Shown piece after piece: positions 1 to 50,337 of a stretch of 64,000 nucleotides of DNA. The DNA is from Chthonobacter albigriseus (GTDB taxonomy: Bacteria; Pseudomonadota; Alphaproteobacteria; Rhizobiales; Pleomorphomonadaceae). Both the position numbers and the translations under genes were made by a program. Positions within the stretch are counted from its first letter, which is position 1. Every line of letters starts with the position of its first letter. The notes beneath the pieces were generated by a model. It ran no database searches. It was not told the origin of the DNA and was given only the letters and a program-made list of their open reading frames with translations. The stretch spans positions 860,658 through 924,657 of the forward strand of contig NZ_JACDIT010000001.1 of NCBI RefSeq assembly GCF_013839445.1. Direction: 5' to 3'.

Positions 1-11
1 GCCGTCCGCGT

Positions 12-1616: not shown

Positions 1617-1794
1617 CGGCGAATGCGGCTCCTGCCTTGAGGTGGGCAAGAGATACAGGCAAGCCGGACTAGATGCCAAGGGGCGCGGCACTCATCGGAG
1701 GCCGTATCCCGCCTTCCGGCTAGTTGGCACCACCCCTGCCCTGAACTATGGTCCGCCACCCCGCGACAGGACGCGGCGGCGGAGGGGTTGTGTC

Positions 1795-5175: not shown

Positions 5176-5197
5176 GGCTCCTCTATAATGAGCTGAG

Positions 5198-5734: not shown

Positions 5735-5832
5735 CACCAGTTCGAAGGGTATCGGCGGCGGTTGCGAGAAACGGGTGGTGGCGCGGAAAAGCTCCCACTA
5801 CCGTCTCAGCATCGATACGACGGAGATATGTT

Positions 5833-6789
5833 ATGGATTCCGTGTTCACGCCCCATTCCGAAGGCTCGACATCCCGGACCGACGGCAGCTATCTTCACAA
5901 GGAGTTCCGGATGGCGGAGCCTGTCGTTCTGGATCGTCAGGCGGCCGATTACACGCTGGTGCGCGATACCATACAGTATATCTCCGAACGGTGGAGAGAT
6001 CAGCCCGAGCTCGAGACCATCGCTGCGGCGGTCGGTACTGATGCAAACCATCTGCACCGGGTGTTCACACGTTGGGCTGGACTGACGCCGAAGGCGTTCG
6101 TCCAGGCGTTGACGCTGGATCAGGCGCGCCGGATGCTCAACGACAGCGCCTCGATTCTCGACACCGCCTACGAGGTGGGCCTGTCAGGACCGGGCCGGCT
6201 GCACGACCTTTTCGTCACCCACGAGGCCATGAGCCCGGGCGCCTACAAGGCAAGAGGTGGTGGAGTTACAATAGCTTACGGGTTCCATTCGTCGCCGTTC
6301 GGGACGGCGGTGGTGATGGCGACCGATCGCGGCCTGGCCGGTCTGGCCTTCGCCGACCCGGGCGAGGAGCAGCGGTCGTTCGAGGACATGGCCACCCGCT
6401 GGCCGGCGGCAGCCTTCGTCCACGACCCGGAGGTGACCGCACCCTATGCCCGGCAGGTGTTCGATCCGGGCTTCTGGAGCCACGACCGGCCGCTGCGCCT
6501 GGTGTTCATCGGATCGGACTTCGAGGTTCGGGTATGGGAGACGCTGCTGCGGATTCCTCTTGGAAAAGCAACGACTTACAGCGACATCGCCCGGCATATC
6601 GGGAACCCGAAGGCGGTGCGCGCGGTGGGCTCCGCGGTGGGCCGCAACCCCATTTCGTTCGTGGTTCCTTGCCATCGCGTGCTCGGCCGACAGGGCGATC
6701 TCTGCGGCTATCACTGGGGCTTGACGCGCAAGAAGGCGATCCTCGGCTGGGAGACCGGGCTGGTGAACAAGCTGTCCGGCACGGAATGA
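5833..6789 (+). CDS. ada: AraC-family HTH fused to methylated-DNA-protein-cysteine methyltransferase (Ada/Ogt-like)
   Basis: N-terminal AraC-type HTH and C-terminal MGMT domain with the PCHRV active-site motif. No N-terminal Ada zinc domain. Start could instead be the internal Met at 5911. Confidence 0.8.
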   Translation: MDSVFTPHSEGSTSRTDGSYLHKEFRMAEPVVLDRQAADYTLVRDTIQYISERWRDQPELETIAAAVGTDANHLHRVFTRWAGLTPKAFVQALTLDQARRMLNDSASILDTAYEVGLSGPGRLHDLFVTHEAMSPGAYKARGGGVTIAYGFHSSPFGTAVVMATDRGLAGLAFADPGEEQRSFEDMATRWPAAAFVHDPEVTAPYARQVFDPGFWSHDRPLRLVFIGSDFEVRVWETLLRIPLGKATTYSDIARHIGNPKAVRAVGSAVGRNPISFVVPCHRVLGRQGDLCGYHWGLTRKKAILGWETGLVNKLSGTE

Positions 6790-10898: not shown

Positions 10899-11435
10899 AT
10901 TCGTCGCCCGTTCCGAGCCACTGCGCCGATCAAGGAAGGTCCGCGCGTCAACCGTGAAATCCGAGTTCCGCAGGTCCAGCTGATCGACGAGAACGGCGAG
11001 AACCGTGGGGTCGTCGCGATCCTGGACGCCCTTGCCGCCGCCAACGAGGCCGGGCTCGATCTCGTGGAGATCTCGCCGAACTCTACGCCGCCGGTCTGCA
11101 AGATTCTCGACGTGGGCAAGTTCAAGTACCAGTCGCAGAAGAAGGCCGCCGAAGCGCGCAAGAACCAGAAGACGGTTGAGATCAAAGAGATCAAGATGCG
11201 TCCGAACATCGACACCCACGACTACGAGGTGAAGATGAAGAGCATGCATCGGTTCTTCGAGGAAGGCGACAAGGTCAAGGTGACGCTGCGGTTCCGTGGC
11301 CGCGAGATGGCGCACCAGGACCTGGGCGTGAAGCTTCTGCTGCAAGTGCGCGACGAGACTGCGACCATCGCCAAGGTGGAGAGCGAGCCGCGCCTTGAAG
11401 GCCGCCAGATGGTGATGGTGCTCGCCCCGCGCTGA
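10899..11435 (+). CDS. infC: Translation initiation factor IF-3 with non-canonical ATT start
   Basis: Full-length IF-3 (…[20 protein letters not shown]… through …[12 protein letters not shown]). SD GAGGAGA at 10884-10890, then ATT at 10899 eight nt downstream, matching the conserved AUU autoregulatory start. The ORF track's ATG at 10794 adds a non-homologous 35-aa extension. Confidence 0.85.
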
Positions 11436-11462
11436 GCGAACGTCGCCCAGTCGAATTTCTGC

Positions 11463-11498
11463 AACGGCGTCGGGCCAACCGGCGCCGTTTCGCTTTTC
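11463..11498 (+). terminator. Putative intrinsic terminator after infC
   Basis: AACGGCG-loop-CGCCGTT stem followed by TCGCTTTTCGG. Confidence 0.4.
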
Positions 11499-11522
11499 GG
11501 GGACAGCGACGGGTCATTTTCG

Positions 11523-11798
11523 CTGTCATACCGACCTCACGAAGTCCTGACCCCTCTGCGTTTGCCAGGTTCGCCGATCGGGGCAGGAGCTGGTCGCAGC
11601 TCGACCGTCCGGTCGAGCAAGAACAGCGACGAACCCGGGCGGATGAACCTGACAAACCCTTCGGGCTCCCCGCTTTTGGCCGACTGCGGCGTCGCGCTCG
11701 GGGCATGGACGGACGTCCATGTCCCCTCCCGCTCCTGGCATTCGGCCAAAATCGGGGAGCGCAGACGGGTCAGGACTTCGTGAGGTCGGTATCAGTAG
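11523..11798. repeat. ~270-bp composite palindromic (MITE-like) element with 33-bp terminal inverted repeats
   Basis: ATACCGACCTCACGAAGTCCTGACCC(C/G)TCTGCG at 11527-11559 matches its reverse complement at 11758-11790 (32/33). The interior holds further hairpins (GCTCGACC-gtcc-GGTCGAGC; GGGGCATGGAC-g-GACGTCCATGTCCCC). The two short six-frame ORFs inside mirror each other (both end ...VRTS). Confidence 0.65.
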
Positions 11799-12469
11799 GG
11801 CGGGTAGCCGAAGATGTCGGTGAAGGCTGCGCGGGCCCGGGCCTCGGCGATCTCGGCCTCCCGAGCGGCCCTCGCCGCATCCATGCGGGCGGAGAAACCA
11901 TCGTCGAAGCCAAAGCGGCGGCTTTGGAGATTGGCGATGCGGTCGCGGATGTCGTCCCGCTCGTCGTCGCTGGCGTCGCGCATGCGGCGGCGCAGGTCGC
12001 GGATCTCGTCGGCGATGCGATCCTCCTCGTTCTCGGCCCGTCTGGCCTCGTCGGCGAGTTCGCGGGCTTCGCTGCGGGCCTGGTAGACGTCGGTGCCGAG
12101 GCCATAGGCGGTGAGGAAGTCGGCGCCGGCGCGGCCGGTACAGACGTTCTCGTAGCTCTTGCCCGCCGACCCGTTGGCAAAGCCGGAGACGGGCGTGCAA
12201 TAATCCTTCAATCCCTCAGACCGGCCGCGCTGCCAGGTGATGGCATCGACGCCGATCTTGTAGCGGGCGCAGGCCTTCTCGTGCTCGGCGAGGATGGCGG
12301 AGGACTTGCCGTTGCGGCCGTCGACGACGCCGATCTGGTACCAGTCGCCGGACTGGCACTGCTCCTTGGAGAGCGTGGAGCAGCCGGCAAGGACGAGGAA
12401 AAGGCCGACCAGCGCGCCCGCACCCGAAAGGGGCGCGGAGCGGCGCGGGCGGGCAACGGGAAAAGACAT
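11792..12469 (-). CDS. Putative lipoprotein with coiled-coil/charged C-terminal region
   Basis: Signal peptide with lipobox LAGC (MSFPVARPRRSAPLSGAGALVGLFLVLAGCS), conserved Cys pairs, and a C-terminal Arg/Asp/Glu-rich repeat region. No enzymatic motif. Confidence 0.65.
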   Translation of the reverse strand: MSFPVARPRRSAPLSGAGALVGLFLVLAGCSTLSKEQCQSGDWYQIGVVDGRNGKSSAILAEHEKACARYKIGVDAITWQRGRSEGLKDYCTPVSGFANGSAGKSYENVCTGRAGADFLTAYGLGTDVYQARSEARELADEARRAENEEDRIADEIRDLRRRMRDASDDERDDIRDRIANLQSRRFGFDDGFSARMDAARAAREAEIAEARARAAFTDIFGYPPY

Positions 12470-23331: not shown

Positions 23332-23569
23332 TTGGGTGAACACGCGGACGTCGGCTCGTTTCCGCCTGCGGATCCGACATCACGAAACGCCGACCAGTTT
23401 CGCCAGAGGGGCCCGGATCCGCCTGAGATGGACCGTATATGGCGAAGCCAAGGCGACGTTCAAGAGGCGCTCTAAGGGATAATGCTTATGGTGTATTGAA
23501 TGTATCAGGCCTGTCCAGCGCGCCGGGAGGGAGCGACGGCGCAGACCGATCGTTCCGAGGAGAAGCGGC

Positions 23570-36193: not shown

Positions 36194-36799
36194 TCAGAAA
36201 GGCGTGCGGGAGCGGATGGCGGCGGCGAGGGTGCCCTCGTCCAGATAGTCCAGCTCGCCGCCGACGGGCACGCCGTGGGCGAGCCGCGAGACCCTGACGT
36301 CGAGGCCCTGCAGGCGGTCGGTGACGTAGTGGGCGGTGGTCTGGCCGTCGACCGTGGCGTTGACGGCGAGGATGACCTCGCGGACGGCCGGGTCGCGGGC
36401 GCGCTCGATCAGGCCGGCGATCGTCAGGTCGTCCGGGCCGATGCCGTTGAGCGGGGAGAGCACGCCGCCGAGCACGTGGTAACGGGCGTCGATGGCGCCG
36501 GCGCGCTCCAGGGCCCAGAGGTCGGACACGTCCTCCACCACAACGATGACGGAGGCGTCGCGACGCGGGTCGGTGCAGACGATACACGGGTCCGCCGTGT
36601 CGACGTTGCCGCAGACGGAGCAGACCTTCACGGTGTCGCGGACGCGAACGAGCGCCTCGGCAAGCGGCTCCAGCAGCTGGTCCTTCTTCTTGACGAGCTG
36701 CAACGCCGCGCGCCGGGCCGACCGCGGCCCGAGGCCGGGAAGGCGGGCGAGCAGCTGGATGAGGCGTTCGATCTCGGGTCCGGTGACGCGGCGCGACAT
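36194..36799 (-). CDS. recR: Recombination protein RecR
   Basis: HhH N-terminus ([20 protein letters not shown]), C4 zinc finger (CSVCGNV…CIVC), Toprim domain. Confidence 0.95.
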
Positions 36800-36853
36800 G
36801 GGATGGGGACTGGCCTCAACGGTTCGCGCCGGGGGCGGGCGCGGGGCGCCCGG

Positions 36854-37180
36854 TCAGAAGGGGAGCTTCAGGCCCGCCGGCAGGTTGAGGCCGCCGGTGA
36901 CGGCCTGCATGCGCTCGGCGACCGCCGTCTCCAGCTTGACGCGTGCATCGGCGTGGGCGGCGAGGATCAGGTCCTCCAGGATCTCCGCCTCGTCCTCCTT
37001 GAGGAGCGACGGGTCGATCTTGATACCGCGCAGGTCGCCCTTGCCGGAGAGCGCGACGGTGACGAGGCCGGCGCCGGATGCGCCGGTGATCTCCAGCCGG
37101 GCGATCTCGTCCTGCGCCGCGGCCATGCGGCCCTGCAGCTCCTGCGCCTGCTTCATCATCTTGCCGAGGTCGCCGAACAT
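36854..37180 (-). CDS. ybaB: Nucleoid-associated protein YbaB/EbfC
   Basis: [33 protein letters not shown]… canonical YbaB. Confidence 0.92.
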
Positions 37181-37196
37181 GGGGGTGCTCCTTCAG

Positions 37197-39041
37197 TCAG
37201 TCGTCGTCGAAATCGGACGGCACCCAGTCGGGTTCGAGCCAGTCCGCGGAGGGGTCGAGGGGGTAGTCGCCGGAGGGCGGCAGATCGCCGGTCGCGTCGG
37301 CGGTCATCGGGAGGGCGGGATCGCCGGGCATGCGGACGTCGACGATCTCGGCGCCGGGGAAGCGGCGGAGAATGGCGGAGACCACCGGGTCGGCGCGGGC
37401 GTCGTCGACCAGCGTGCGGCGCGCCGCGTCGCGGCGGGCCTGGACGGTTTCCTCGCCGGCGTCGCGAGAGACGGCGACGATCCAGCGGCGGCCGGTCCAC
37501 TGGGTGAGCTTGCGGCCAAGGTCGCCGGCGAGCGTGGGGCTGGCCGTCGGCGCCGGGTTGAACTCGATGCGGCCATCCTCGAAGCGGACGAGGTGGACGT
37601 CGCGTTCGAGCGCGATCTTCAGGCCGATCTCGCGGCGTTCGGCACAGAGGCCGATGACGTCCGCGAAGGAGGCGAGCGCCATGGTGGGCGCTTCGGCGGG
37701 CTGCTGCTGGGCCCGGGGGGCTTCGGTGCGGACAGGCCGGTCGAAACCGCCGCCGCGGGCGGCTCCTTGCGCGCCGCCGCTACCGCCGCCGCTTCCGCCG
37801 CCGGATGGGCCGGGTGCGGGCGCGCCGCTGCCGCCGATGCCTTCGCGGAGCTGGCGGAGCGCCTCGTCGGGGGTGGGCAAGTCGGCGGCGTAGGCGAGGC
37901 GGACGAGGACCATCTCGGCGGCCGGAAGCGCGCGCGGGGCGGCCTGGACCTCGGCGATGCCCTTGAGGAGGATTTGCCAGGCGCGGCTGAGGACGCGGAC
38001 GGAGAGGGCGTCGGCGAAGGCGCGGCCGCGGACCCGCTCGCCCTCGGTGAGGGCGGGATCCTCGCTCATCGCCGGCACATGCTTGAGGCGGGTGACGAGG
38101 TGGACGAAGGCGGCGAGGTCGGAGAGCACGACGGCCGGATCGGCGCCGGTGTCGTACTGGTCCGACAGTTCGGCGAGCGCGGCGGCGACGTCGCCCTTCA
38201 TGATAGATTCGAAAAGGTCGATGACGCGCCCGCGGTCGGCAAGGCCGAGCATGGAGCGGACGCTCTCGGCAGTGACGGCGCCGTCGCCGTAGGCGATCGC
38301 CTGGTCCAGGATGGTGAGGGCGTCGCGGGCGGAGCCCTCCGCGGCGCGGGCGACGAGAGCGATCGCTTCGGGCTCGACCTCGACCTTCTCGGCCTCGGCG
38401 ATGTGCTTCAGGTGGGCGCCGAGCAGGCCGGTGTCGATGCGGCGCAGATCGAAGCGCTGGCAGCGCGACAGCACCGTGATCGGCACCTTGCGGATCTCGG
38501 TGGTGGCGAAGACGAACTTCACGTGCTCCGGCGGCTCCTCCAGCGTCTTCAGGAGGGCGTTGAACGCCTGGGTGGAGAGCATGTGCACTTCGTCGATGAT
38601 GTAGACCTTGTAGCGGGCGGTCGCCGGCTTGTAGCGGGCCGCCTCGATGATCTCGCGTACGTCGCCGACGCCGGTGTGGGAGGCGGCGTCCATCTCGATG
38701 ACGTCGACGTGCCGGCCTTCCATGATGGCGCGGCAGTGGACGCCCTCCTCGCGGAGGTCGACGGTGGGGCGTTCCACCTTGCCGGGGAGCTCGTAGTTGA
38801 GGGCGCGGGCGAGGATGCGGGCGGTGGTGGTCTTGCCCACGCCGCGGACGCCGGTGAGCATCCAGCCCTGGGCGATGCGGCCGCTCTCGAAGGCGTTGGA
38901 GAGCGTGCGAACCATGGCGCCATGGCCGATCAGGTCGTCGAAGGAAGATGGCCTGTACTTGCGGGCGAGCACGCGATAGGGGCTGCCGGGCGCGGGCGCT
39001 TCGGCGGGCAACAGGGCCGGGGTTTCGGAAATGTCGTCCAT
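37197..39041 (-). CDS. dnaX: DNA polymerase III subunits gamma/tau
   Basis: 615 aa from MDDISETPALL; Walker A GVRGVGKTT, clamp-loader SRC motif, Pro/Gly-rich tau linker and C-terminal tau domains. The 84 upstream codons in the ORF overlap the SRP RNA and are non-coding. Confidence 0.93.
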   Translation of the reverse strand: MDDISETPALLPAEAPAPGSPYRVLARKYRPSSFDDLIGHGAMVRTLSNAFESGRIAQGWMLTGVRGVGKTTTARILARALNYELPGKVERPTVDLREEGVHCRAIMEGRHVDVIEMDAASHTGVGDVREIIEAARYKPATARYKVYIIDEVHMLSTQAFNALLKTLEEPPEHVKFVFATTEIRKVPITVLSRCQRFDLRRIDTGLLGAHLKHIAEAEKVEVEPEAIALVARAAEGSARDALTILDQAIAYGDGAVTAESVRSMLGLADRGRVIDLFESIMKGDVAAALAELSDQYDTGADPAVVLSDLAAFVHLVTRLKHVPAMSEDPALTEGERVRGRAFADALSVRVLSRAWQILLKGIAEVQAAPRALPAAEMVLVRLAYAADLPTPDEALRQLREGIGGSGAPAPGPSGGGSGGGSGGAQGAARGGGFDRPVRTEAPRAQQQPAEAPTMALASFADVIGLCAERREIGLKIALERDVHLVRFEDGRIEFNPAPTASPTLAGDLGRKLTQWTGRRWIVAVSRDAGEETVQARRDAARRTLVDDARADPVVSAILRRFPGAEIVDVRMPGDPALPMTADATGDLPPSGDYPLDPSADWLEPDWVPSDFDDD

Positions 39042-39140
39042 CGTCCTCGTCCGCCGCTCGCCCCGTTCGTCAGGCCGGCGCTCCGGGACCCGCTTCGGCG
39101 CCGGTGCATCATCCGCGGAGCTCAGGGAGTGACGGACCCG

Positions 39141-39250
39141 GAGAAAAGGGTGGGAGGCCGACGAGTGACCCGAGCCGAAGCTCGTTGGGGCTGCTTCCTT
39201 CCGGACCTGACCCGGTTGGCGAGTGGCACGTCCACCGCCAACCTCCCGGC
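39141..39250 (-). ncRNA. ffs: Signal recognition particle RNA (4.5S/ffs, small bacterial type)
   Basis: Minus strand contains GGUCAGGUCCGGAAGGAAGCAGCC, identical to the E. coli 4.5S domain IV core. 5' GGGAGG pairs with 3' CCUCCC and it ends CACCCUUUUCUC. Sits ~100 nt upstream of dnaX as in the conserved ffs-dnaX-ybaB-recR cluster. Confidence 0.85.
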
Positions 39251-39383
39251 GACACATATCGCGGCTCGGCGGCCAAAACGCAAGAGCGGCCATGGCGCGA
39301 CCACAAGGGACCTCGCCAGCAAGCCGGCCACCATGAAATTTTCGTCATTGTGGCGGAGGTCCCTGTTTCGGCGCCTTTGTCGG

Positions 39384-41363
39384 GCTAGGTTCATGACGAG
39401 AACGGAACAGGTGCGGCCCAGGCGGGGTTTGCAAACCCTTGCGGTTGATGGAAACCTGTCGGCTGCTGTCATTCCTCTGGAGGGTAGATTGACGATCGTC
39501 CGGTCCGGGTTCTTGTCTCGCCTTGCCGCCGCGGTCGCGGTGGCCGTGTCGCTCGCCGCCCCGCCCGCGCTGGCGCAAGCCGATCCGCCCTGGCGGCATG
39601 CGACGGCACTGACCGGCGATCCGCGCCACCCGGCGGACTTCAAGCACTTCGACTACGTGAACCCGGACGCGCCGAAGGGCGGGCGGGTGCGGCTGGGCGT
39701 GCAGGGCGGATTCGACAGCACGAACGTCCACCTCGGACTGAAGGGCGAACCAGCTCCGGGCGTCGGGCTCGTCTACGAGACGTTGATGACCTCGTCGCTC
39801 GACGAACTCGACATCTCGTCGATGTATGGCCTGCTGGCGGACGGCCTGAAGTATCCGGACGACTATTCCTGGGTGATCTACCGGCTGAACCCGAACGCCC
39901 GCTGGCAGGACGGCCAGCCGGTGACGCCGGAGGACGTGATCTGGAGCATGGAGACGCTGAAGGAGATCAATCCCAACGACGGGTTCTACTTCAGCCACGT
40001 GACGAAGGCGGAGAAGGTGGGCGAGCGGGAGGTGAAATTCACCTTCGATGCGCCCGGCAACCGCGAACTGCCGCATATCGTGGGGCAGCTGACCGTGCTG
40101 CCGAAGCACTGGTGGGAAGGCACCGACGCCAGCGGCCAGAAGCGCAACATCCGCAACACCACGCTGGAATTCCCCATGGGATCGGGGCCCTACAAGGTGA
40201 AAGCGATCGACCCCGGCCGGCGGGTGGTGATGGAGCGTGATCCCAACCACTGGGGCAAGGACCTGCCGACCCAGGTCGGCCAGAACAATTTCGACGAGAT
40301 CATCTACGAGACCTACAAGGATGCGGTTGTGCTCTTGGAGGCGTTCAAGGGCGACCGGTTCGATTTCCGGGTGGAGAACTCGGCCAAGAACTGGGCGACG
40401 GGCTACGACTTTCCGGCCAAGAACGATGGCCGGGTGGTTCTGGCCACCTATCCGGACAAGGCGTCCGGCGTGATGCAGGCCTTCGTGCCGAACCTTCGCC
40501 GGGAGAAGTTCAAGGACACCAAGGTGCGGCAGGCCCTGAACCTGGCGTTCGACTACGAATCGCTGAACCGCACCGTGTTCTTCGGGCAGTACAAGCGCGT
40601 GGCGAGCTTCTTCGAAAACACCGAGCTGGCGGCGCGCGGCTTGCCCTCGCCGGAGGAGCTGGCGATCCTGGAGCCGCTGAAGGACCAGGTCCCGCCGGCG
40701 GTGTTCACCACGCCCTACGAGAACCCGGTGAACGGCTCTCCAGAGAAGCTCCGGGAAAACCTGCGCACGGCGGTGAAGCTTCTGGGCGAAGCAGGCTGGA
40801 CCTTCAAGGGCAGCCAGCTGGTGAACGCCAAGGGCGAGCCATTCACGATCGAGTACCTCACCCAGTCGCAGAACGACGAGCGCTTCGTCACGCCCTATGC
40901 CCAGGTGTTGAAGCGGATCGGCATCACCATGACCGTGCGGATCGTGGAGTCCGCGCAGTTCGTGAACCGCGTGCGCGATTTCGACTACGACATGATCATG
41001 GTGCCCTGGGGCCAGTCGCTTTCGCCAGGCAACGAGCAGCGTCGATACTGGGGCTCCAAGGCGGCGGACACGCCGGACTCCCAGAACTATGCGGGCATCA
41101 AGGACCCGGCGGTGGACGCCCTGATCGAACGGGTGATCTTCGCTAAGGATCGGGCGGACCTGGTGGCGGCGACCAAAGCACTGGACCGGGTGCTCTTAGC
41201 CAACCACTTCGTGATCCCGCAGTGGACGCTGGACTACGACCGCTACGCCTACTGGAACCGCTTCTCGCATCCGGAAAAGCTGCCGGAATACTCGTTCGGC
41301 TTCCCGACCGTGTGGTGGTGGGACGCGGAGAAGGCCAAGGCGACAGGCGGAGGGGCCAACTGA
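39384..41363 (+). CDS. yejA: ABC transporter substrate-binding protein, family 5 (YejA-like peptide/microcin C binding protein), copy 1
   Basis: SBP_bac_5 features throughout; signal peptide …LAAAVAVAVSLAAPPALA. Alternative TTG start at 39489 with GGAGGG SD gives a cleaner 27-aa signal peptide. Carried inside the artefactual 1623-aa six-frame ORF. Confidence 0.8.
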   Translation, partial: ARFMTRTEQVRPRRGLQTLAVDGNLSAAVIPLEGRLTIVRSGFLSRLAAAVAVAVSLAAPPALAQADPPWRHATALTGDPRHPADFKHFDYVNPDAPKGGRVRLGVQGGFDSTNVHLGLKGEPAPGVGLVYETLMTSSLDELDISSMYGLLADGLKYPDDYSWVIYRLNPNARWQDGQPVTPEDVIWSMETLKEINPNDGFYFSHVTKAEKVGEREVKFTFDAPGNRELPHIVGQLTVLPKHWWEGTDASGQKRNIRNTTLEFPMGSGPYKVKAIDPGRRVVMERDPNHWGKDLPTQVGQNNFDEIIYETYKDAVVLLEAFKGDRFDFRVENSAKNWATGYDFPAKNDGRVVLATYPDKASGVMQAFVPNLRREKFKDTKVRQALNLAFDYESLNRTVFFGQYKRVASFFENTELAARGLPSPEELAILEPLKDQVPPAVFTTPYENPVNGSPEKLRENLRTAVKLLGEAGWTFKGSQLVNAKGEPFTIEYLTQSQNDERFVTPYAQVLKRIGITMTVRIVESAQFVNRVRDFDYDMIMVPWGQSLSPGNEQRRYWGSKAADTPDSQNYAGIKDPAVDALIERVIFAKDRADLVAATKALDRVLLANHFVIPQWTLDYDRYAYWNRFSHPEKLPEYSFGFPTVWWWDAEKAKATGGGAN

Positions 41364-43243
41364 TGCACCCGGCCGGTCTGTTCGGCGCGGCGATCGGTCG
41401 CCGCAGTTTCCTGCAACTGGCCGGAGCGGGGGCGCTTGCCGTCGCCCTTCCGCACAGTCCGGCCCAGGCGGGGCGCGGACGCAGCCACGGGCTGTCGGTG
41501 TTCGGGGAGCTCAGGTATGCCGCCGACTTCAAGCACTTCGGCTATGTGAATCCGGCGGCACCGAAGGGCGGAACATTCCGCTTCTCGCCGTCCTACTGGT
41601 ACTTCAACCAGTCGACGCAGACCTTCAACACGCTGAACGGGCTGGTGCTTTCCGGCGATGCGCCGCCGCGGACGGAGTACACCTTCGACACGCTGATGTC
41701 GTCGGCACTGGACGAGCCGGACTCGGTCTACGGGCGCGTCGCGGCGTGGGTGGAGGTTTCGGAGGACGGCAACACCTACCGCTTCGGGCTGCGGCCGGAG
41801 GCACGTTTCCACGACGGGTCGCCGCTGACAGCGGAGGACGTGGCGTTCAGCTACGGGCTCCTGAAGGAGAAGGCGCATCCGCAGATCCGGGAAAGCCTGA
41901 GCGAGCTGGTCTCCGCGACGGCGGAGGGGGCCGAGGTGGTGCTCGTGTTCTCCGGCAAGCAGAACGCCTCGGTGCCGATCGCGGCAACGGGGATGCCGAT
42001 CCTCTCCAAGGCCTTCTATGCGGGCGAGGACTTTACCGCTTCCACGCTGAAGCCGCCGCTCGGGTCCGGGCCCTACCGGATCGGACGGTTCGAGACCGGA
42101 CGGTTCATCGAGTACGACCGGGTGGCGGACTATTGGGGCAAGGACCTGCCGGTGTCGGTGGGGCATGCCAACTTCGACACGCTCCGGATCGTGTTCTTCC
42201 AGGACCGGGAGCCGGAATTCCAGGCGTTCACCAAGGGCGAGATCGAGTGGCGGACGGAGCCGACGTCGCGGCTCTGGGCGACCGGCTACGATTTTCCGGC
42301 GGTGGGCGAAGGCAAGGTGAAGAAGGCGGAGTTCCCCGCCAACCTGCGCCCCACCATGCAGGGCTGGTTCATCAACATGCGCCGGCCGAAGTTCGCGGAC
42401 CCGCGGACGCGCGAGGCGCTCGGCTATTGCTTCGACTTCGAATGGACGCGGGCGAACCTTTTCTACGGCTCCTACGACCGGCAGATCTCGATGTTCGAGC
42501 AATCGGATTTCGAGGCCTCCGGCAAGCCCGGGCCGGACGAGCTGGCGATCATGGAGCCGCTGCGCGACCGGTTGCCACCGGAGGCGTTCGGGGAGGCGAT
42601 CGTGCCGCCGGTGTCGGACGGGTCCGGCCGCGATCGGGCGATGCTGCGGCGGGCGAACGAGCTCTTGACGCAAGCCGGCTGGACGCGCGGGCCGCAGGGG
42701 CTGGTCGACAAAGCCGGCGAGCGGCTGACCGTGGAGTTCCTGATCGAGGCGCAGGTGTTCGAAAAGGTGATGGCGCCCGTGGTGCAGGCGCTGAAGACGC
42801 TTGGGGCGGAGGCGACGATCCGCCTTGTCGATGCGACGCAGTACCAGCGGAGGGTGGAGGAGCGCGAGTTCGACATCATCGGGCGGGCGACGTCGCTGTC
42901 GTCCACGCCGCTCGACGATGTGGAGCAGCTGTTTTCCTCGCGCAACGCGGACGTTCCCGGCGGGTCGAATCTCTCCGGCCTCAAGGACCCGGTGGTGGAC
43001 GAGCTGACGGCACGGGTGCGGGCCGTCAGGACGCGCGAGGAGATGGTGACGCTGCTGAAGGTGATCGACCGCGTGGTCCGGACACACTACATCTGGATCC
43101 CGAACTGGTATTCAGGCCGAATCAGGGCCGCCTTCTGGGACAAGTTCGGCTGGCCGGAAAGGAAGCCGGACTACTTCTTCCCGGTGGAGACGACCTGGTG
43201 GGTCGACGCCGCCAAGGCAGAGGCGATCGGCCGACCGCTCTGA
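41363..43243 (+). CDS. yejA: ABC transporter substrate-binding protein, family 5 (YejA-like), copy 2, Tat-type signal
   Basis: Paralogous to copy 1 (DFKHFxYVNPxAPKGG, WATGYDFPA, etc.). N-terminus MHPAGLFGAAIGRRSFLQLAGAGALA carries a twin-arginine motif. The ATG overlaps the copy 1 stop (ATGA). Confidence 0.85.
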   Translation: MHPAGLFGAAIGRRSFLQLAGAGALAVALPHSPAQAGRGRSHGLSVFGELRYAADFKHFGYVNPAAPKGGTFRFSPSYWYFNQSTQTFNTLNGLVLSGDAPPRTEYTFDTLMSSALDEPDSVYGRVAAWVEVSEDGNTYRFGLRPEARFHDGSPLTAEDVAFSYGLLKEKAHPQIRESLSELVSATAEGAEVVLVFSGKQNASVPIAATGMPILSKAFYAGEDFTASTLKPPLGSGPYRIGRFETGRFIEYDRVADYWGKDLPVSVGHANFDTLRIVFFQDREPEFQAFTKGEIEWRTEPTSRLWATGYDFPAVGEGKVKKAEFPANLRPTMQGWFINMRRPKFADPRTREALGYCFDFEWTRANLFYGSYDRQISMFEQSDFEASGKPGPDELAIMEPLRDRLPPEAFGEAIVPPVSDGSGRDRAMLRRANELLTQAGWTRGPQGLVDKAGERLTVEFLIEAQVFEKVMAPVVQALKTLGAEATIRLVDATQYQRRVEEREFDIIGRATSLSSTPLDDVEQLFSSRNADVPGGSNLSGLKDPVVDELTARVRAVRTREEMVTLLKVIDRVVRTHYIWIPNWYSGRIRAAFWDKFGWPERKPDYFFPVETTWWVDAAKAEAIGRPL

Positions 43244-43270
43244 CCGAGATCGAAGGACCACCGCCCGTCC

Positions 43271-44374
43271 ATGGCAGCCTACATCCTCCGACGCATCCTC
43301 CTGATGATCCCGACGCTGATCGGCATCATGGCGATCAGCTTCATCGTGGTGCAGTTCGCGCCGGGCGGGCCGGTTGAGCGGATCCTGGCGCAGCTGCAGG
43401 GCACCGACGTGTCGGCGACCGACCGGATCACCGGCGGGAGCGGCGACTTCGCCGCGGGGGCAGAGCCGGGCGGCGGTGGCGGAACCACCTCGAACTACCG
43501 GGGTGCGCAGGGGCTCGACCCGGAGTTCATCAAGGAGCTTGAGGTACAGTTCGGCTTCGACAAGCCGCCGCTGGAACGCTTCGGGCTGATGCTGTGGAAC
43601 TACGCGCGGTTCGACTTCGGGACCAGCTACTTCCGCGACACGGCGGTGGTGGACCTCATTCTGGAAAAGATGCCGGTCTCCATCTCGCTTGGGCTTTGGC
43701 TGACGCTGATCTCCTACGCGATCTCGATCCCGCTCGGGATCCGCAAGGCGGTGCAAGACGGTTCGCGCTTCGACACCTGGACCTCGACGGTGATCGTGAT
43801 CGGCTACGCGGTGCCAGGTTTCCTGTTCGCGGTGCTGCTGATCGTGCTGTTCGCGGGCGGCAGCTTCTTCGACTGGTTCCCGCTGCGCGGGCTCACGTCG
43901 GAGAATTGGGAGCAGCTGTCGTGGCCGGCGCGGATCGTCGACTACTTCTGGCACCTGGCGCTGCCGCTGACGGCGATGGCGCTGTCCGCCTTCGCGACGA
44001 CGACGCTCCTGACCAAGAACGCCTTCCTGGACGAGATCCGCAAGCAATACGTGCTGACGGCGCGGATGAAGGGGCTGAACGACCGGCAGGTGCTCTACGG
44101 GCACGTGTTCCGCAACGCGATGCTCCTGATCATCGCGGGGTTTCCGGGGGCGTTCATTTCGGCCTTCTTCACGGGATCGCTGCTGATCGAGACGATCTTT
44201 TCGCTGGACGGGCTCGGGCTCCTGGGCTTCGAGAGCGTGATCAACCGCGACTATCCCGTGGTGTTCGGGACGCTCTACATCTTCTCGCTGATCGGGCTGG
44301 TGACGAACCTTCTCTCCGACCTCACCTACACCTGGATCGATCCACGGATCGATTTCGAGGCGCGGGAGGTCTGA
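43271..44374 (+). CDS. yejB: ABC transporter permease YejB (BPD_transp_1)
   Basis: 6-TM permease with an EAA-like loop; standard OppB/YejB-like N-terminus [29 protein letters not shown]. Confidence 0.9.
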
Positions 44375-44378
44375 GCCG

Positions 44379-45551
44379 ATGGAGATGACCGTCCCGCCCC
44401 CGCCGCCGACCACGCAGGCGCCGCCCGCCCAACCGCTCGTGGCCAAGCGCAGCCGGTTCCAGCTGTCGCCGATCAACCGGCGCAGGCTCGACAACTTCAA
44501 GGCCAACCGTCGGGGGGTGTGGTCTTTCTGGATCTTCCTGGCGCTGTTCGTCCTGTCGCTGTTCGCCGAAGTGATCGCCAACGACAAGCCGCTGCTCGTC
44601 TCCTACAAGGGGGAGACGCTCTATCCGGTGCTGGTGGACTATCCGGAGGAGAAGTTCGGCGGCTTCCTGGCGATCACCAACTTCCGCGACCCCTTCATCC
44701 AGGACGAGATCAACGCCAACGGCTGGATGGTCTGGCCGCCGATCCGCTATTCCTACTCCACGGTGAACACGGAAATGCCGCGGCCGGCGCCGTCGCCGCC
44801 GTGGTGGATGATGGAGCGGGAGGAGCTCTGCTCGCGCTACCCGATGGGGGTGGACGACCCCAACTGCACGCTCGGCAACTTCAACTGGATCGGCACCGAC
44901 GACCAGGGCCGCGACGTGGTGGCGCGACTGATCTACGGGTTCCGGATCTCCGTGCTGTTCGGGATGATCCTGGCCGTGATCTCGTCCGTGGTCGGCGTTG
45001 CGGCGGGCGCGGTGCAGGGCTATTTCGGCGGTTGGGTGGACCTGGTGTTCCAGCGCTTCATCGAGATCTGGACGTCGATCCCGACGCTCTACCTGCTCCT
45101 GATCCTGGCGGCGGTGATGACGCCGTCATTCTTCATCCTGCTCGGCATCATGCTGCTGTTCTCGTGGGTGGCGCTGGTGGGCGTGGTGCGGGCCGAGTTC
45201 CTGCGGGCGCGAAACTTTGAATACGTGCGGGCGGCCAAGGCGCTCGGCGTCTCCAACGGGACGATCATGTGGCGGCACATGCTGCCGAACGCGATGGTGG
45301 CGACGCTGACGTTCCTGCCGTTCATCCTCAACGGCTCGATCACCACGCTGACTTCGCTGGACTTCCTGGGGTTCGGCCTGCCGCCGGGATCGCCCTCGCT
45401 CGGGGAACTGCTGGCGCAGGGCAAGAACAACATCCAGGCGCCATGGCTGGGCTTCTCCGGGTTCATCGTGATCTCGGTCATGCTAAGCTTGCTGGTGTTC
45501 GTCGGCGAGGCCGTGCGCGATGCGTTCGACCCGCGCAAGACGTTCCGGTGA
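44379..45551 (+). CDS. yejE: ABC transporter permease YejE
   Basis: OppC/YejE-like permease with a long N-terminal periplasmic segment and an EAA motif region. Confidence 0.9.
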   Translation: MEMTVPPPPPTTQAPPAQPLVAKRSRFQLSPINRRRLDNFKANRRGVWSFWIFLALFVLSLFAEVIANDKPLLVSYKGETLYPVLVDYPEEKFGGFLAITNFRDPFIQDEINANGWMVWPPIRYSYSTVNTEMPRPAPSPPWWMMEREELCSRYPMGVDDPNCTLGNFNWIGTDDQGRDVVARLIYGFRISVLFGMILAVISSVVGVAAGAVQGYFGGWVDLVFQRFIEIWTSIPTLYLLLILAAVMTPSFFILLGIMLLFSWVALVGVVRAEFLRARNFEYVRAAKALGVSNGTIMWRHMLPNAMVATLTFLPFILNGSITTLTSLDFLGFGLPPGSPSLGELLAQGKNNIQAPWLGFSGFIVISVMLSLLVFVGEAVRDAFDPRKTFR

Positions 45552-45561
45552 GGATGAGGCG

Positions 45562-45801
45562 ATGAACAAGGTGGTGACGCGACAACACGTCCGGGCTTCC
45601 GAACTGCCCGCCGATCTCCGCGGGGAGATCCCGCCATCAGCGCTTGTGACGGTCACGGTCTCGGAAGAGGTCACGCACGATGACCGTAAAGATCCGATCC
45701 AGCTTCTCAAAGAGTACCACCAGATTTCCGACAAGCCTGGAGTGACCAGCGAGGAAGCCGTACAGCGGGTCCGCGCGCTTCGAGACGAATGGGACGACTG
45801 A
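45562..45801 (+). CDS. Small acidic protein, candidate antitoxin (VapB-like) of a type II TA pair
   Basis: 79 aa, SD GAGGATGAGG upstream. N-terminal segment RQHVRASELPADLRGEIPPSALVTVTVSEEV could fit a swapped-hairpin (AbrB/MazE-like) fold. Stop overlaps the downstream PIN gene start (ATGA). Local GC clearly below flanking genes. Confidence 0.5.
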   Translation: MNKVVTRQHVRASELPADLRGEIPPSALVTVTVSEEVTHDDRKDPIQLLKEYHQISDKPGVTSEEAVQRVRALRDEWDD

Positions 45802-46301
45802 TGGAGGCCGTCGGTCGCCTGTACCTCGACACCAACATCTTCATACGTGCGTTCGAAGGAACCGACGAACTGGCCGCCCGGATCAGACGTTTGTTCTACG
45901 GTGTCGAAGGGCGTCCGCTCCTGGTGACCAGCCAACTCACCTACGCTGAGGCGATCCAAAAGCCCTATGCGGAACGAAACGATCGGCTCATCGACCTCTA
46001 TTCAAACTGGCTTCGAACCGGCAACAATGTCCTGGACGTGTGTCCATTGGATCCTGATTGTCTGTATTACGCGGCGGTTTTGCGGAGTACCTACAAGTCG
46101 CTGAAACTTCCCGACGCGATCCACCTTTCGACGGCCTTCGGATCACAATGCACTCATTTTCTGTCAGACGATCAGCGACTTCCGAATGATGTTGCGATGT
46201 CGCACCATCCCCACGGCCTCGTCCGAGGACCGATGAACCTGATCATGCTTCGGCCTGACAGGAAAACTGTCGACACGCTTCTGGAGATGCTGTCGCCATG
46301 A
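45801..46301 (+). CDS. vapC: PIN-domain ribonuclease, VapC-like toxin
   Basis: PIN signature: beta1 LYLDTNIFI (Asp), LVTSQLTYAEAIQ (Glu), LPDAIHLSTAFGSQCTHFLSDDQRL (Asp…T.D). Alternative ATG at 45789. Stop overlaps the yejF ATG (ATGA). Has a ~40-aa C-terminal extension. Confidence 0.7.
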   Translation: MEAVGRLYLDTNIFIRAFEGTDELAARIRRLFYGVEGRPLLVTSQLTYAEAIQKPYAERNDRLIDLYSNWLRTGNNVLDVCPLDPDCLYYAAVLRSTYKSLKLPDAIHLSTAFGSQCTHFLSDDQRLPNDVAMSHHPHGLVRGPMNLIMLRPDRKTVDTLLEMLSP

Positions 46302-47929
46302 TACCCAAACCCCTTCTCGTGGTGGATGATCTCAGCGTGGCGTTCGCGCAGGGTGGCGGGACGTCGCTGGCGGTGGACCGGATCTCGTTCACCGTGGAGG
46401 CGGGCGAGACGGTGGCGATCGTTGGCGAGTCCGGGTCGGGCAAGTCGGTGACCGCGCTATCGGTGGTCAAGCTGCTGCCCTATCCGGCGGCGTCGCATCC
46501 GAGCGGTCGGATCCTGTTCAAGGGCGAGGACCTGCTGGCCGCGTCGGACGCGGCGCTCCGGCAGGTGCGCGGCAACGCGATCACCATGGTGTTCCAGGAG
46601 CCGATGACATCGCTCAACCCGCTGCACACGATCGAGCGGCAGATCGGCGAGATCCTGAAGGTACACAAGGGGCTGTCGGACGGCGAGGCACGGGTGCGGA
46701 CGCTCGAGCTTTTGCGCGAGGTGGGCATCCCGTCGCCGGAGTCGCGGCTCGGGGCCTATCCGCACCAGCTTTCCGGCGGGCAGCGGCAGCGGGTGATGAT
46801 CGCCATGGCGCTCGCCAACGAGCCGGACCTCCTGATCGCGGACGAGCCGACGACGGCGCTCGACGTCACCGTGCAGGCGCAGATCCTGAGGCTTCTGAAG
46901 GACCTGCAGGCCAGGCGCGGGATGGCCATCCTGTTCATCACGCACGACCTCGGGATCGTGGAACGCTTCGCCGACAAGGTCTGCGTAATGACCAGGGGCA
47001 AGATCGTGGAGGCGGGGCCGACCAAGGCGGTGTTCGCCGACCCGCAGCACGCCTATACCCGGCACCTGCTCTCCGCGGCGCCCAATGGCGAACCGCCGCC
47101 GGCGGATGCGTCAGCACCGGTGGTGATGGAGGCGAGCGACCTGAAGGTGTGGTTCCCGATCCGGCGGGGGTTCCTGCGCCGGACGGTGGGCCACGTGAAG
47201 GCCGTGGACGGCGTCTCGGTAAGGGTTCGGGCGGGGCAGACGCTAGGCATCGTTGGCGAATCCGGGTCGGGAAAGACCACGCTCGGACTTGCGCTGCTGC
47301 GGCTGATCGGCAGCGAGGGGCGGATCGCCTTTCTCGGGCGATCGATCGAGACGCTGCGATCTGCAGAGATCCGGCCGCTCCGGCGCGACATCCAGATCGT
47401 GTTCCAGGATCCGTTCGGCTCGCTCAGCCCACGCATGTCGGTGGGCGACATCGTCGGCGAGGGGCTCCTGGTGCACGAGCCGGATATGCGAGCGGAGGAG
47501 CGCGAGGCGCGGGTGGTCAACGCGCTTACGGAAGTGGGACTCGATCCGGAGACGCGTTTCCGCTATCCGCACGAATTCTCCGGCGGGCAGCGGCAGCGCA
47601 TCGCGATCGCGCGTGCGATGGCGCTCAATCCGAAGTTCGTGATGCTGGACGAGCCGACGTCGGCGCTGGACATGAGCGTGCAGGCGCAGGTGGTGGACCT
47701 GCTGCGGGATCTGCAGCGGCGGCATGGGCTCGCCTACCTCTTCATCAGCCACGACCTGAAGGTGGTGAAGGCGCTGGCCAACGACCTCGTGGTGATGAAG
47801 GACGGCAAGGTGGTGGAGGCTGGGCCTGCCGCCGAGGTGTTCGCCCGGCCGCAGGCGCCCTATACGCAGGCGCTGCTCGCGGCCGCCTTCAAGCTGGAAA
47901 CGGCGGCCATCGGAGCAGTGCGGGAGTAG
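46298..47929 (+). CDS. yejF: ABC transporter ATP-binding protein YejF (two fused ABC domains)
   Basis: Two Walker A ([16 protein letters not shown]), two LSGGQRQR signatures, two Walker B; 543 aa. Confidence 0.95.
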
Positions 47930-47957
47930 CGCTCCCGCCGCCGGTCCGCCTCGCCGA

Positions 47958-49559
47958 TCAGGCTGCGACGTCGCGGGTGAACTTGCGGATCCGCTCGTCC
48001 AGGGCTGCCGCCGCCTGGGACAGATCGTCGGCAATCGTGGAGACCGTATCGGCTACCCGGGCCGTATCCACCGCCGCACCGGAAACGCCGGAAATAGTCG
48101 CTCCCAGTTCGGCCGTGCCGCGGGAAACCTCTCCTGCCCTGAGGGATATGCCGGAGGTGGTCGCGGACTGCTGCTCCATGGCGGCGGCGATGCTGCCGCT
48201 GGAGTGCTCGATCGTGTCAAGCGTGGTCGTCAGTGAGCCGATCTGATCGACGACTGCCGCCGTTGCTGCCTGGATGGCACCGATCTGGCCGGTGATCTCG
48301 TCGGTGGCCTTTGCGGTCTGGGCGGCGAGCACCTTGACCTCGTTGGCGACAACGGCGAAGCCACGGCCCATCTCGCCGGCGCGGGCCGCCTCAATGGTGG
48401 CGTTGAGGGCGAGGAGATTGGTCTGGTCGGCGATGCCGCGGATGAGATCGACCACCGTGCCGATCCGCTCGGTGTTGGCGGCAAGCGATTCCACCTGGCG
48501 GCGGGCCTCGCGACCCTTGACGGCGCCGTCGGCGGTGACCCGGTTGGCGGCTTCGATCTGGCGGCCGACGTCGCGGACGGTTTCGGAGAGCTGGCGGGTG
48601 GCGTCTGCGACGGCTCCGACGTGTTCGCTGTCGCGCCCGGCCGCGCCCGCGGCGGCAGCGGCGGAGGTGCGGGTCAGCGAGGCGACGCGGGTCAACTCGC
48701 CGGCGGTGCTGGTCATGGTCTCGGCGCTGGACTTGACGAAGCCGACTATCTGGCCAGCCTCCTCGCGGAACGCGCCGACCACCTCCTCCAGGAGAGCGGC
48801 CCGGCGTTGGCGCTCGGCCACGCGGACGGCCTCCTCCTGCTTCAGCCGATCGTTCTCGATCATCGACAGGCGGAAGACCTCGACGGCGCCGGCAATGCGG
48901 CCGACCTCGTCGGCGCGATCCTGGCCATCGACGACGATACCGGTGTCTCCGCCGGCAAGGCGGCCGACGGCATCGGCGATAGATCCGAGCGAGCGGCTGA
49001 CACCACTGCCCAGGCGCCACGCATAGAAGACGAAGCCGAGAAGAAGCGGGGCGCAAAGCGCGCCGATGGTGACGGCGATGCGAAGAAGCACGATGTCGAC
49101 GCCGGCAACCGGCGACGCCGCAACGATCACCGTGTCCGCACCCGCCACGGGAAGCGCATAGGCCATCATCTCCACGGGACCAGACGTGGAGGGCGAGGTG
49201 CCGGTGTAGCGAACGAGCGAGCCGCCGGCGCGGGCGGCCGCCAACCAGTCCTCGACCGGACCTGCGATCGTCCCGGCGACGAGCTTTCCGCTGCGATCCA
49301 GGACGGCCACCTGCGTGTCGCCGGCCACATTGGACGCTCCGGGTCCGGCGCCGGCCGACGCTGCGGCGACTTCGGCAGCACTCCGAACGGCAAGCCCGCG
49401 GGCCTCGAAGAGGCTTTCGCGGAACTGATAGAGCGCCAAACCCGTCCCGACGCCCATGATCAGGACAGCGACGCAGATGACGACGAGGAACCTGACACCC
49501 AAGGTCAGTCGGGAGGTTCCGGGCTGGGACGGAAGGAGGGGTTCGCGACGGTAAATCAT
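47958..49559 (-). CDS. Methyl-accepting chemotaxis protein
   Basis: N-terminal TM, periplasmic segment, second TM, HAMP, and MA signalling domain ([31 protein letters not shown]). The upstream 239 codons of the ORF are GC artefact. Confidence 0.85.
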
Positions 49560-49659
49560 GCCGTCGACACTATGTCTTTTGCTGATGAAGAGGTCGTTAA
49601 GTCCCCCACCCGGAAAAACCCCTAGGGCCGTTTGGCCGCACCTCCCCCGGCAGGCGCGC

Positions 49660-50151
49660 TCAAGGCGCCGCGAGCGACCACCGCGCGGGCTCGGTGGCGG
49701 CAAAGGCGGCGACGTCGGTCTCCACGATCGCCAGTCGAACTTCCTCGCCGTCGAAGCCGGCGGTATCGACGGGGAGACGGACGGGCGTACCGCCAACACC
49801 CAGAAAACCGCCAACCGTGGTGGTGATCGACATCGGCAGGCCGTCGGCATCGAGCTGGACGTCGGATACCTCGCCGACCTCGACACCATCAGCGCTGAGC
49901 ACTGGCTTGCCGATCCAGAGGTCCGGGTCGGCGTCGTTGCCGGCGACAACCGGCGCTTCGGCAACGGAACCGGTGCTGTCCGGAGCGGTCGGCACAGGGG
50001 CGTCGCCCGCGTCGATCCCAGCCGGCGCCTCGTCGACGACCGGAGCGGCAAGCGCCATCGGCGACTCGTCGCGCGGTTCGACCAGGACGATGCCGGCGAC
50101 GAGTGCGCCGATCGCTGCCACAAGGGCCGGGGCGACCCATACCACCCGCAT
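49660..50151 (-). CDS. PRC-barrel domain protein with N-terminal TM/signal anchor
   Basis: [24 protein letters not shown] anchor. PRC-barrel-like segment [27 protein letters not shown]. Confidence 0.55.
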
Positions 50152-50337
50152 GATGTTCTCCTGAACCCAACGACTACGCTGAACTGTTGAAGCCGGTTCG
50201 CCTCGCGGAACGGTAATGTTCCGGTTAAAGATCGGTTCCACGGCGGTGCACAAAACTTCGCGATCCGCCGGCCCAACCGGCGAAGGCGTCGGCTCGCGAG
50301 CGGACAACGTCGGGAGAATCACGCGGTCGGGTGCGGT

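Follow-up and report, generated by a model that had tools for sequence, protein, structure and literature searches.

Type II toxin-antitoxin (TA) modules are commonly portrayed as mobile two-gene units that are autonomous and regulate themselves, the classic examples carrying an auto-regulated promoter of their own, and their two proteins usually diversify at the toxin-antitoxin interface. Some TA genes are co-transcribed with housekeeping genes, as in relA-mazEF of Escherichia coli and in the VapBC-type ntrPR beside ntrBC of Sinorhizobium meliloti. In a 64,000-nucleotide (nt) stretch of Chthonobacter albigriseus (contig NZ_JACDIT010000001.1; hereafter the window), we analysed two adjacent genes, one for a small acidic protein and one for a PIN-domain protein, that lie between yejE and yejF in a yejABEF-like operon encoding a peptide ATP-binding cassette (ABC) importer (39.3-47.9 kb, + strand; Table 1). 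On comparative evidence, the pair is an old, selected passenger of the yejE/yejF junction in many Hyphomicrobiales, and we lean towards regarding it as a promoter-less, VapBC-type TA-like module that has long resided there and is retained by addiction.

The pair resembles the solved VapBCs of Klebsiella pneumoniae (7BY2/7BY3), Shigella flexneri (3TND/5ECW) and Rickettsia felis (VapBC2, 3ZVK), and VapC20 of Mycobacterium tuberculosis (5WZF), in its PIN fold, its D-E-D-D acidic set and the gene for a small upstream partner that overlaps the toxin gene. It departs from them in about 40 extra C-terminal PIN residues, in a partner lacking any detectable AbrB, ribbon-helix-helix (RHH), Phd or helix-turn-helix (HTH) domain, in having no promoter or operator of its own that we could find, in being embedded in and coupled to a transporter operon, and in being essentially absent from plasmids. 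Like relA-mazEF and ntrPR, it is a chromosomal TA-like pair in a fixed, conserved neighbourhood, where it would receive read-through from a core gene. Those pairs stand at the end of or beside core genes and have kept their own promoter, whereas the pair described here has a subunit gene of the same transporter on either side, and its toxin stop overlaps the start codon of the downstream subunit gene. The host operon shares the A-B-E-F order of the YejABEF importers of E. coli, Salmonella, Brucella and Sinorhizobium, and YejE and YejF are the best family matches of its products, but it contains two binding-protein genes and the two-gene cassette at the junction, and its YejF scores 749 bits against NF011713 (YejF), under the equivalog cut-off of 834.

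The open reading frame (ORF) map and the NCBIfam and Pfam matches bear out the placement of the pair between yejE and yejF that an initial annotation had made from the DNA alone; because the gene-level features have hidden Markov model E-values behind them, chance is not an issue. The genes run as yejE, 10 nt, small gene, TGATG, PIN gene, ATGA, yejF. An acidic 79-residue protein does precede the PIN protein, as annotated, although not from position 45520, which is the ATG of a longer, 93-residue reading that overlaps yejE; the ATG of the small gene (45562) lies 7 nt 3' of a Shine-Dalgarno-like GAGGA. The annotation gave two ATGA overlaps, of which the one between the PIN gene and yejF stands, while the small and PIN genes are in fact joined by TGATG, with a single shared base. 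An alternative in-frame PIN ATG at 45789 would produce a 13-base overlap; we set the start at 45801 because the 166-residue NCBI protein and the homologues agree on it. Among 18 sequence-distinct lineages, the 1-base small/PIN overlap recurs in 13, as does a 4-base NTGA overlap between the PIN gene and yejF. Co-transcription and translational coupling with yejF, as first proposed, are implied by these overlapping stops and starts.

The YejE C-terminus (...DAFDPRKTFR, then TGA) is identical in empty and occupied operons, the cassette beginning right after the YejE stop and bringing its own NTGA overlap with yejF. Non-ATG (TTG or GTG) yejF starts were inferred at 10 of 20 TA-occupied junctions and at 5 of 55 empty ones (Fisher p = 3e-4; loci L001-L093), a comparison in which the starts are inferred and the lineages not independent, and which may point to a dependence of YejF translation on reinitiation once the cassette has been translated.

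The PIN protein is a VapC by every in silico feature that we examined. It matches PF01850 at 47.8 bits (cut-off 23.6), the family expected at annotation, and the acidic tetrad D10, E50, D105 and D124 is aligned and present. In alignments of 18 locus sequences and of 50 family members, D10 and D124 are invariant in both, E50 is invariant in the former and conserved in at least 90% of the latter, and D105 is invariant among the 50 members and replaced by N in one of the 18 locus sequences (L030). The VapC-typical pair T43-S44 is retained in at least 90% of the 50 members. None of the NCBIfam VapC models matched the protein. An AlphaFold model (predicted local distance difference test (pLDDT) 92, predicted template-modelling score 0.88) returned solved VapCs among its top Foldseek matches in the PDB (7by3, 5ecw, 3zvk and 5wzf; probability 1.0), with target-normalised TM-scores of ~0.65-0.70 at only 14-24% identity, and a profile search of PDB sequences recovered K. 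pneumoniae VapC (7by2_B, E = 3e-8). The ~40 additional C-terminal residues are modelled as strand-strand-helix outside the VapC core, are uncovered by the solved VapCs and are missing in some family members (143-146 residues). Exact-protein look-ups of the window PIN in 170- and 166-residue versions returned no record; at NCBI, identical proteins from C. albigriseus (Pleomorphomonadaceae, Hyphomicrobiales) are labelled 'VapC family toxin' and 'hypothetical protein'. Beyond that species, the closest PIN homologue is only 47-50% identical.

The small protein (isoelectric point 5.1; 16 D+E, 11 K+R) belongs to an undescribed family and is a candidate new antitoxin type. It has no match in Pfam, NCBIfam or PADLOC and no relative in the PDB, in agreement with the initial suggestion that it may be of an unclassified antitoxin type. 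A profile search found more than 2,036 homologous clusters (E <= 0.001), and among those listed all were 'hypothetical' or unnamed save two with evidently spurious names, none with a Pfam domain. In 61 sequences of the family L15, P16, R71, L73, R74, D75, E76 and W77 are invariant, the last six forming a C-terminal R-x-L-R-D-E-W motif. AlphaFold predicts strand-helix-strand-helix-helix (pLDDT 73), with the N-terminal strand-helix-strand at pLDDT ~80. An apparent AbrB/MazE likeness of the N-terminal segment 'LPxDLR...V.VTIE' lacks statistical support: PF04014 was touched by only 2 of the 61 family members (E = 0.03), and hhalign against MazE/AbrB gave a probability of 0.4% with reference sequences that were approximate.

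We scanned one genome per species with the window YejE as seed and obtained 80 Hyphomicrobiales loci with YejE 66-78% identical. The genes yejE and yejF are directly adjacent, mostly with an ATGA overlap, in 55 of the 80; the small-PIN pair occupies the junction in 12, in Aurantimonas, Aureimonas, Aquibium, two Mesorhizobium, Chelatococcus, Bosea and several metagenome-assembled genomes (MAGs); and the other 13 hold different cargo, ORF-poor gaps or remnants. Exact-protein look-ups of PIN homologues placed nine of nine between yejE and yejF behind an ORF of 75-97 residues, in Microbaculum, Rhizobium leguminosarum, Devosia geojensis, a Beijerinckiaceae MAG, Breoghania, Rhizobium sp. AQ_MP and two metagenomic lineages, one of them represented by more than 100 contigs. 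When metagenomes were scanned with the small protein as seed, 66 of 84 loci showed the full yejE-small-PIN-yejF order, and a further 8, on incomplete contigs, are compatible with it.

The same slot and overlaps recur across several families of Hyphomicrobiales: 18 sequence-distinct lineages show them, at a PIN identity of only 30-50%. The small gene lies directly upstream of the PIN gene in all 18, no PIN gene without a small gene was seen among ~100 loci, and the identities of the two proteins co-vary from lineage to lineage (rho 0.45, Mantel p = 0.003). Homologues of both ORFs at this exact position, whose presence in all related genomes with flank-like composition the annotation took as a sign against insertion, occur in many of those genomes, though not in all.

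The lower GC content of the pair noted at annotation was confirmed, at 0.54-0.60 across 45600-46300 against 0.64-0.69 in the flanks, with GC at third codon positions (GC3) of 0.65-0.70 against 0.89-0.94. The offset is general: cassette GC is under flank GC in 18 of 18 lineages (mean -8 GC points; PIN GC3 ~23 points lower than flanks) and tracks host GC (r = 0.83), with extremes of 0.40 in flanks of 0.55 and 0.68 in flanks of 0.68. Since it is universal and follows the host, it argues for long residence under weaker codon or GC selection and not for a recent arrival. In the one close carrier pair (Mesorhizobium L044/L058), the ratio of nonsynonymous to synonymous substitution rates (dN/dS) was lower in the cassette (small gene 0.09, PIN gene 0.07) than in yejE (0.13) and yejF (0.12), and cassette dS (0.6-1.1) exceeded flank dS (0.34-0.39); cassette nucleotide identity between these two species is 79-89%, a divergence similar to or above that of the flanks. 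Judged by these ratios, both genes are under purifying selection. A tblastn search of 72,556 plasmids with the PIN protein gave only one distant cyanobacterial match, no near-identical cassettes were found in distant hosts, and no integrase, transposase or repeats flanking the cassette were seen in the window.

Carriers are scattered on a neighbour-joining tree of YejE and YejF. For each of the Mesorhizobium carriers L044 and L058 there is a sister species whose junction is 'empty' and whose flanks are 95-97% identical, and PIN and YejF similarities are weakly related (rho 0.19, Mantel p = 0.08), so we do not claim strict vertical descent. In the carrier/empty comparisons L044/L050 and L058/L063, the first 200 nt of yejF show a nucleotide identity of 0.88-0.90, compared with 0.91-0.99 elsewhere; the dip at the 5' end of yejF could be a recombination breakpoint from allele replacement. 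The Bosea PIN (L082), of the short 146-residue form, is closest to that of Aurantimonas (L017), while Bosea YejEF groups with Chelatococcus, a hint that families have exchanged cassette alleles laterally.

Loss has also left traces. In locus L034, a gap of 208 nt contains all that is left of the small gene, its N-terminal half, which 17 of 18 family members match (best E 5e-7). An intact orphan small gene without this PIN follows a different VapBC in L016, and another, in L115, precedes a repeat-rich ORF and a GIY-YIG nuclease gene that replace the PIN gene; PINs are shortened in L017, L029 and L082. Antitoxin-only remnants with none toxin-only are the asymmetry expected of a real toxin. As read from these patterns, the cassette is an old one kept as a presence/absence polymorphism through descent, loss and, probably, allele exchange via the conserved flanks.

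By its varied contents, the yejE/yejF junction is a cargo slot (Table 1). Four genera carry an unrelated VapBC there, with an Rv0623-like PSK_trans_fac antitoxin (PF07704) and a PIN protein of 129-135 residues. These pairs have the slot and orientation of the pair in the window and a 4-base antitoxin/toxin overlap, and in L048, L067 and L077 their stop overlaps the yejF start as TTGA; they differ in their antitoxin family and in the short, canonical PIN of 129 residues, and represent an independent colonisation of the junction. A His-rich cation-diffusion-facilitator (CDF) gene (PF01545 and PF16916) occurs in the junction alone or beside the small-PIN pair, downstream of it in L029 and L160 and upstream in L133. 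Other junctions hold a gene for an exported protein of ~100 residues with a signal-peptide-like N-terminus, the pattern GVWG...SWPDGRQA...FARCFDYFD and no Pfam match. Its DNA had looked like a conserved non-coding element of ~316 nt (L014, L020, L042, L043 and L064), a reading rejected on codon-like conservation and a tblastn match to a 104-residue ORF in L105; Rfam gave no match to the stretch, and in RNAalifold the covariation term was positive, which is unfavourable, and no more than 4 pairs were compensatory. A side branch of the small-PIN family (PIN 177-178 residues) lies between genes for an amine-oxidase-type flavoprotein and a DUF1365 protein, again with a 4-base overlap between the PIN stop and the downstream start, a yej operon is therefore not the only setting of the family.

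Table 1 Features of the yej operon in the window and of related junctions (L numbers are our labels for sampled loci).
Locus	Feature	Coordinates	Strand	Evidence or remark
Window	terC RNA motif	23365-23424	-	RF03067, 59 bits
Window	Signal recognition particle (SRP) RNA gene	39150-39246	-	RF00169, 54 bits
Window	yejA1-like periplasmic peptide-binding protein, first gene of operon	39333..41363	+	ORF translation; start uncertain, ATG 39333 or 39393
Window	yejA2-like second binding protein	41363..43243	+	ORF translation
Window	yejB-like permease	43271..44374	+	PF00528 BPD_transp_1, E = 2.4e-33
Window	yejE-like permease	44379..45551	+	NF011596, 463 bits (cut-off 439); PF00528
Window	Shine-Dalgarno-like GAGGA	45550-45554	+	Overlaps yejE stop (45549-45551)
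Window	Spacer, 10 nt	45552-45561	+	
Window	Candidate antitoxin, 79 residues	45562..45801	+	Acidic ORF, no family match
Window	Small/PIN overlap TGATG	45799..45803	+	1 base shared; stop 45799-45801, ATG 45801-45803
Window	VapC-type PIN-domain protein, 166 residues	45801..46301	+	PF01850, E = 2.7e-12
Window	PIN/yejF overlap ATGA	46298..46301	+	PIN stop on yejF start
Window	yejF-like double ATPase, last gene of operon	46298..47929	+	NF011713; two PF00005 (ABC_tran) domains
Pseudaminobacter L048	Unrelated VapBC	5127-5773		PF07704+PF01850
Aquamicrobium L067	Unrelated VapBC	5163-5812		PF07704+PF01850
Aminobacter L077	Unrelated VapBC	5124-5785		PF07704+PF01850
Propylenella L016	Unrelated VapBC	5151-5890		PF07704+PF01850
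L019	CDF gene	5133-6134		
L059	CDF gene	5119-6210		
L091	CDF gene	~5150-6150		
L029	CDF gene	after 5787		
L133	CDF gene	2-709		
L160	CDF gene	857-1600		
L042	Exported-protein gene	5144-5460		
L020	Exported-protein gene	5147-5466		
L014	Exported-protein gene	5156-5471		
L043	Exported-protein gene	2608-2901		
L064	Exported-protein gene	5144-5460		
L105	Exported-protein gene	375-689		
L141	Amine-oxidase/DUF1365 branch	1252-2054		
L175	Amine-oxidase/DUF1365 branch	1252-2030		
L147	Amine-oxidase/DUF1365 branch	994-1790		
L034	Half small gene	5147-5354		
L016	Orphan small gene	5969-6199		
L115	Orphan small gene and replacement genes	3001-4037		
L002-L007	BrnT/BrnA TA pair	~11170-11950	-	PF04365/PF14384

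The host operon has genes for binding proteins, then yejB, yejE and yejF, on one strand by ORF map and Pfam, and the same order is found in relatives; the gene after yejF (47958-50276) is on the opposite strand. The model NF011596 matched by YejE is the NCBIfam 'microcin C ABC transporter permease', a subfamily model whose threshold was passed. SBP_bac_5 (PF00496) was found in the orthologous upstream genes of related loci, and paired SBP_bac_5 genes stand at the equivalent position in L001 and L011. The yejA1 stop and yejA2 start (41361-41365) overlap as TGATG, the same form as at the small/PIN junction. A listed ORF at 36492-41363 is an over-long open frame, as is common in high-GC DNA. An SRP RNA gene lies directly upstream of the operon and a terC RNA motif farther upstream, and in the metagenomic lineage carrying P0007 a BrnT/BrnA TA pair lies ~5 kb downstream of the yej operon.

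If the pair acts as a TA module, it would be transcribed from the yej promoter alone. The small protein would be translated from its own ribosome-binding site; ribosomes terminating at UGAUG would reinitiate there to make the PIN protein, and reinitiation at AUGA, after the PIN, would yield YejF. The small protein would neutralise the PIN, probably by placing its invariant RxLRDEW tail over the acidic active site, while its N-terminal strand-helix-strand would dimerise and may bind DNA. Were yej transcription or translation to stop, the cassette to disappear or an empty allele to take its place, the antitoxin, as the less stable of the two proteins, would decay, and the freed PIN would cleave RNA in a tRNA or rRNA loop, the kind of target that other VapCs cut, bringing growth to a halt. 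We propose that this release of the nuclease on loss of supply retains the cassette, that addiction together with homologous recombination through the conserved yejE and yejF flanks maintains the presence/absence polymorphism, and that every slot occupant ends in an NTGA overlap because selection keeps YejF translated.

Several observations weigh against this account. No promoter of the pair's own was found, unlike in classic type II modules: a crude scan of 38500-48500 detected no sigma-70-like site (a promoter inside yejE is possible), no inverted repeat was seen upstream of 45562, and the window and the longer-spacer relatives L058 and L064 yielded no promoter, operator or terminator belonging to the pair, terminator-like matches being at chance level; the 10-nt spacer leaves no room for a separate promoter. 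The invariant C-terminus of the small protein is unusual for TA pairs, our counts of lineages ignore kinship (no phylogenetic correction), and with ~88% of sampled loci in a yej operon a yej-specific function is conceivable instead of selfish addiction. The main rival is accordingly a domesticated pair, no longer a TA system, now at the service of the expression or function of yej; it might, for instance, adjust the permease:ATPase ratio as an RNase by processing or destabilising the polycistronic yej mRNA, or work together with YejF. Besides the missing promoter, the invariant motif and the concentration in the yejE/yejF slot (including all nine PIN look-ups), this rival could explain purifying selection as strong as on yejE and yejF, the physical coupling of YejF translation to the PIN, and a conserved PIN extension not seen in solved VapCs. 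We nevertheless rate it as rather improbable, because the yej operons of 55 of the 80 sampled species work without the pair and close sisters differ in its presence, because the slot also accepts an unrelated VapBC, a CDF gene and a small exported protein, because a branch of the same pair sits in the unrelated amine-oxidase/DUF1365 operon, and because remnants are antitoxin-only and never toxin-only.

Less probable still is that a true TA pair owes its yej placement to adaptation as a sentinel for imported peptides, in which translation-blocking peptides entering via Yej (microcin-C-like peptides, phazolicin or plant nodule-specific cysteine-rich (NCR) peptides) would halt antitoxin resupply, and the PIN would then arrest growth or cut yej mRNA, giving tolerance. 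YejABEF imports the ribosome-targeting peptide phazolicin in S. meliloti (PMC10128002) and is mentioned in a review of Trojan-horse aminoacyl-tRNA-synthetase inhibitors (PMC8323819). The convergence of two unrelated VapBC families on one yej junction and the conserved coupling to yejF also fit; but the idea is purely inferential, the junction takes non-TA cargo too, the pair also occurs in a non-transport operon, and in the library searched we found no paper linking yejABEF with a PIN domain or yejE/yejF with VapC, yejF and toxin-antitoxin co-occurring only in an unrelated paper. A recent horizontal insertion that borrowed the operon promoter, one of the origins suggested at annotation, agrees with the depressed GC and GC3, the patchy distribution across species, the weak PIN/YejF correlation and the Bosea-Aurantimonas resemblance, a hint of lateral allele exchange. 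We abandon it as very improbable, given a nearest PIN homologue at 47-50% identity, diverged homologues sharing slot and overlaps across several families of the order, a universal and host-tracking GC offset, dN/dS of 0.07-0.09, Mesorhizobium cassettes as diverged as their flanks or more so, negative plasmid searches and the lack of integrase, transposase or flanking repeats. A decaying, non-functional remnant carried by the operon has an equally slight chance: decay is evident in some lineages (the L034 relic, the L016 and L115 orphans, D105 to N in L030 and the short PINs of L017, L029 and L082), but both ORFs in the window are intact with all catalytic and motif residues kept, and the dN/dS values of the Mesorhizobium pair speak for constraint.

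A promoter-less TA-like module kept by addiction is therefore the account that we favour, if only modestly. On present genomic evidence, the family departs from the textbook VapBC in its undescribed antitoxin family, the lack of any autonomous promoter that we could find, the lack of plasmid association and its embedding between transporter subunit genes, and further in its use of one intra-operon slot across an order, its purifying selection and its physical coupling to the translation of an ABC-transporter ATPase. It offers a natural system for asking whether chromosomal TA modules persist through addiction, through the function they serve or through recombination across conserved flanks, and it places more than 2,000 'hypothetical' protein clusters as a candidate new antitoxin type. 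There is also a slim prospect that peptide importer and toxin form one functional unit, the module reporting the importer's cargo or expression; Trojan-horse or NCR peptides taken up via Yej, or a shut-off of yej, would then release the PIN nuclease, with growth arrest, tolerance or bacteroid-like differentiation as the outcome. In broader terms, the partner family would on this view define a class of promoter-less TA cassettes specialised for intra-operon stop/start overlaps, an idea that the amine-oxidase/DUF1365 branch fits. The arrangement raises the questions of whether toxin activity reads out host-operon expression and whether it may modulate the Yej-dependent uptake of peptide antibiotics and, in rhizobia, of legume NCR peptides.

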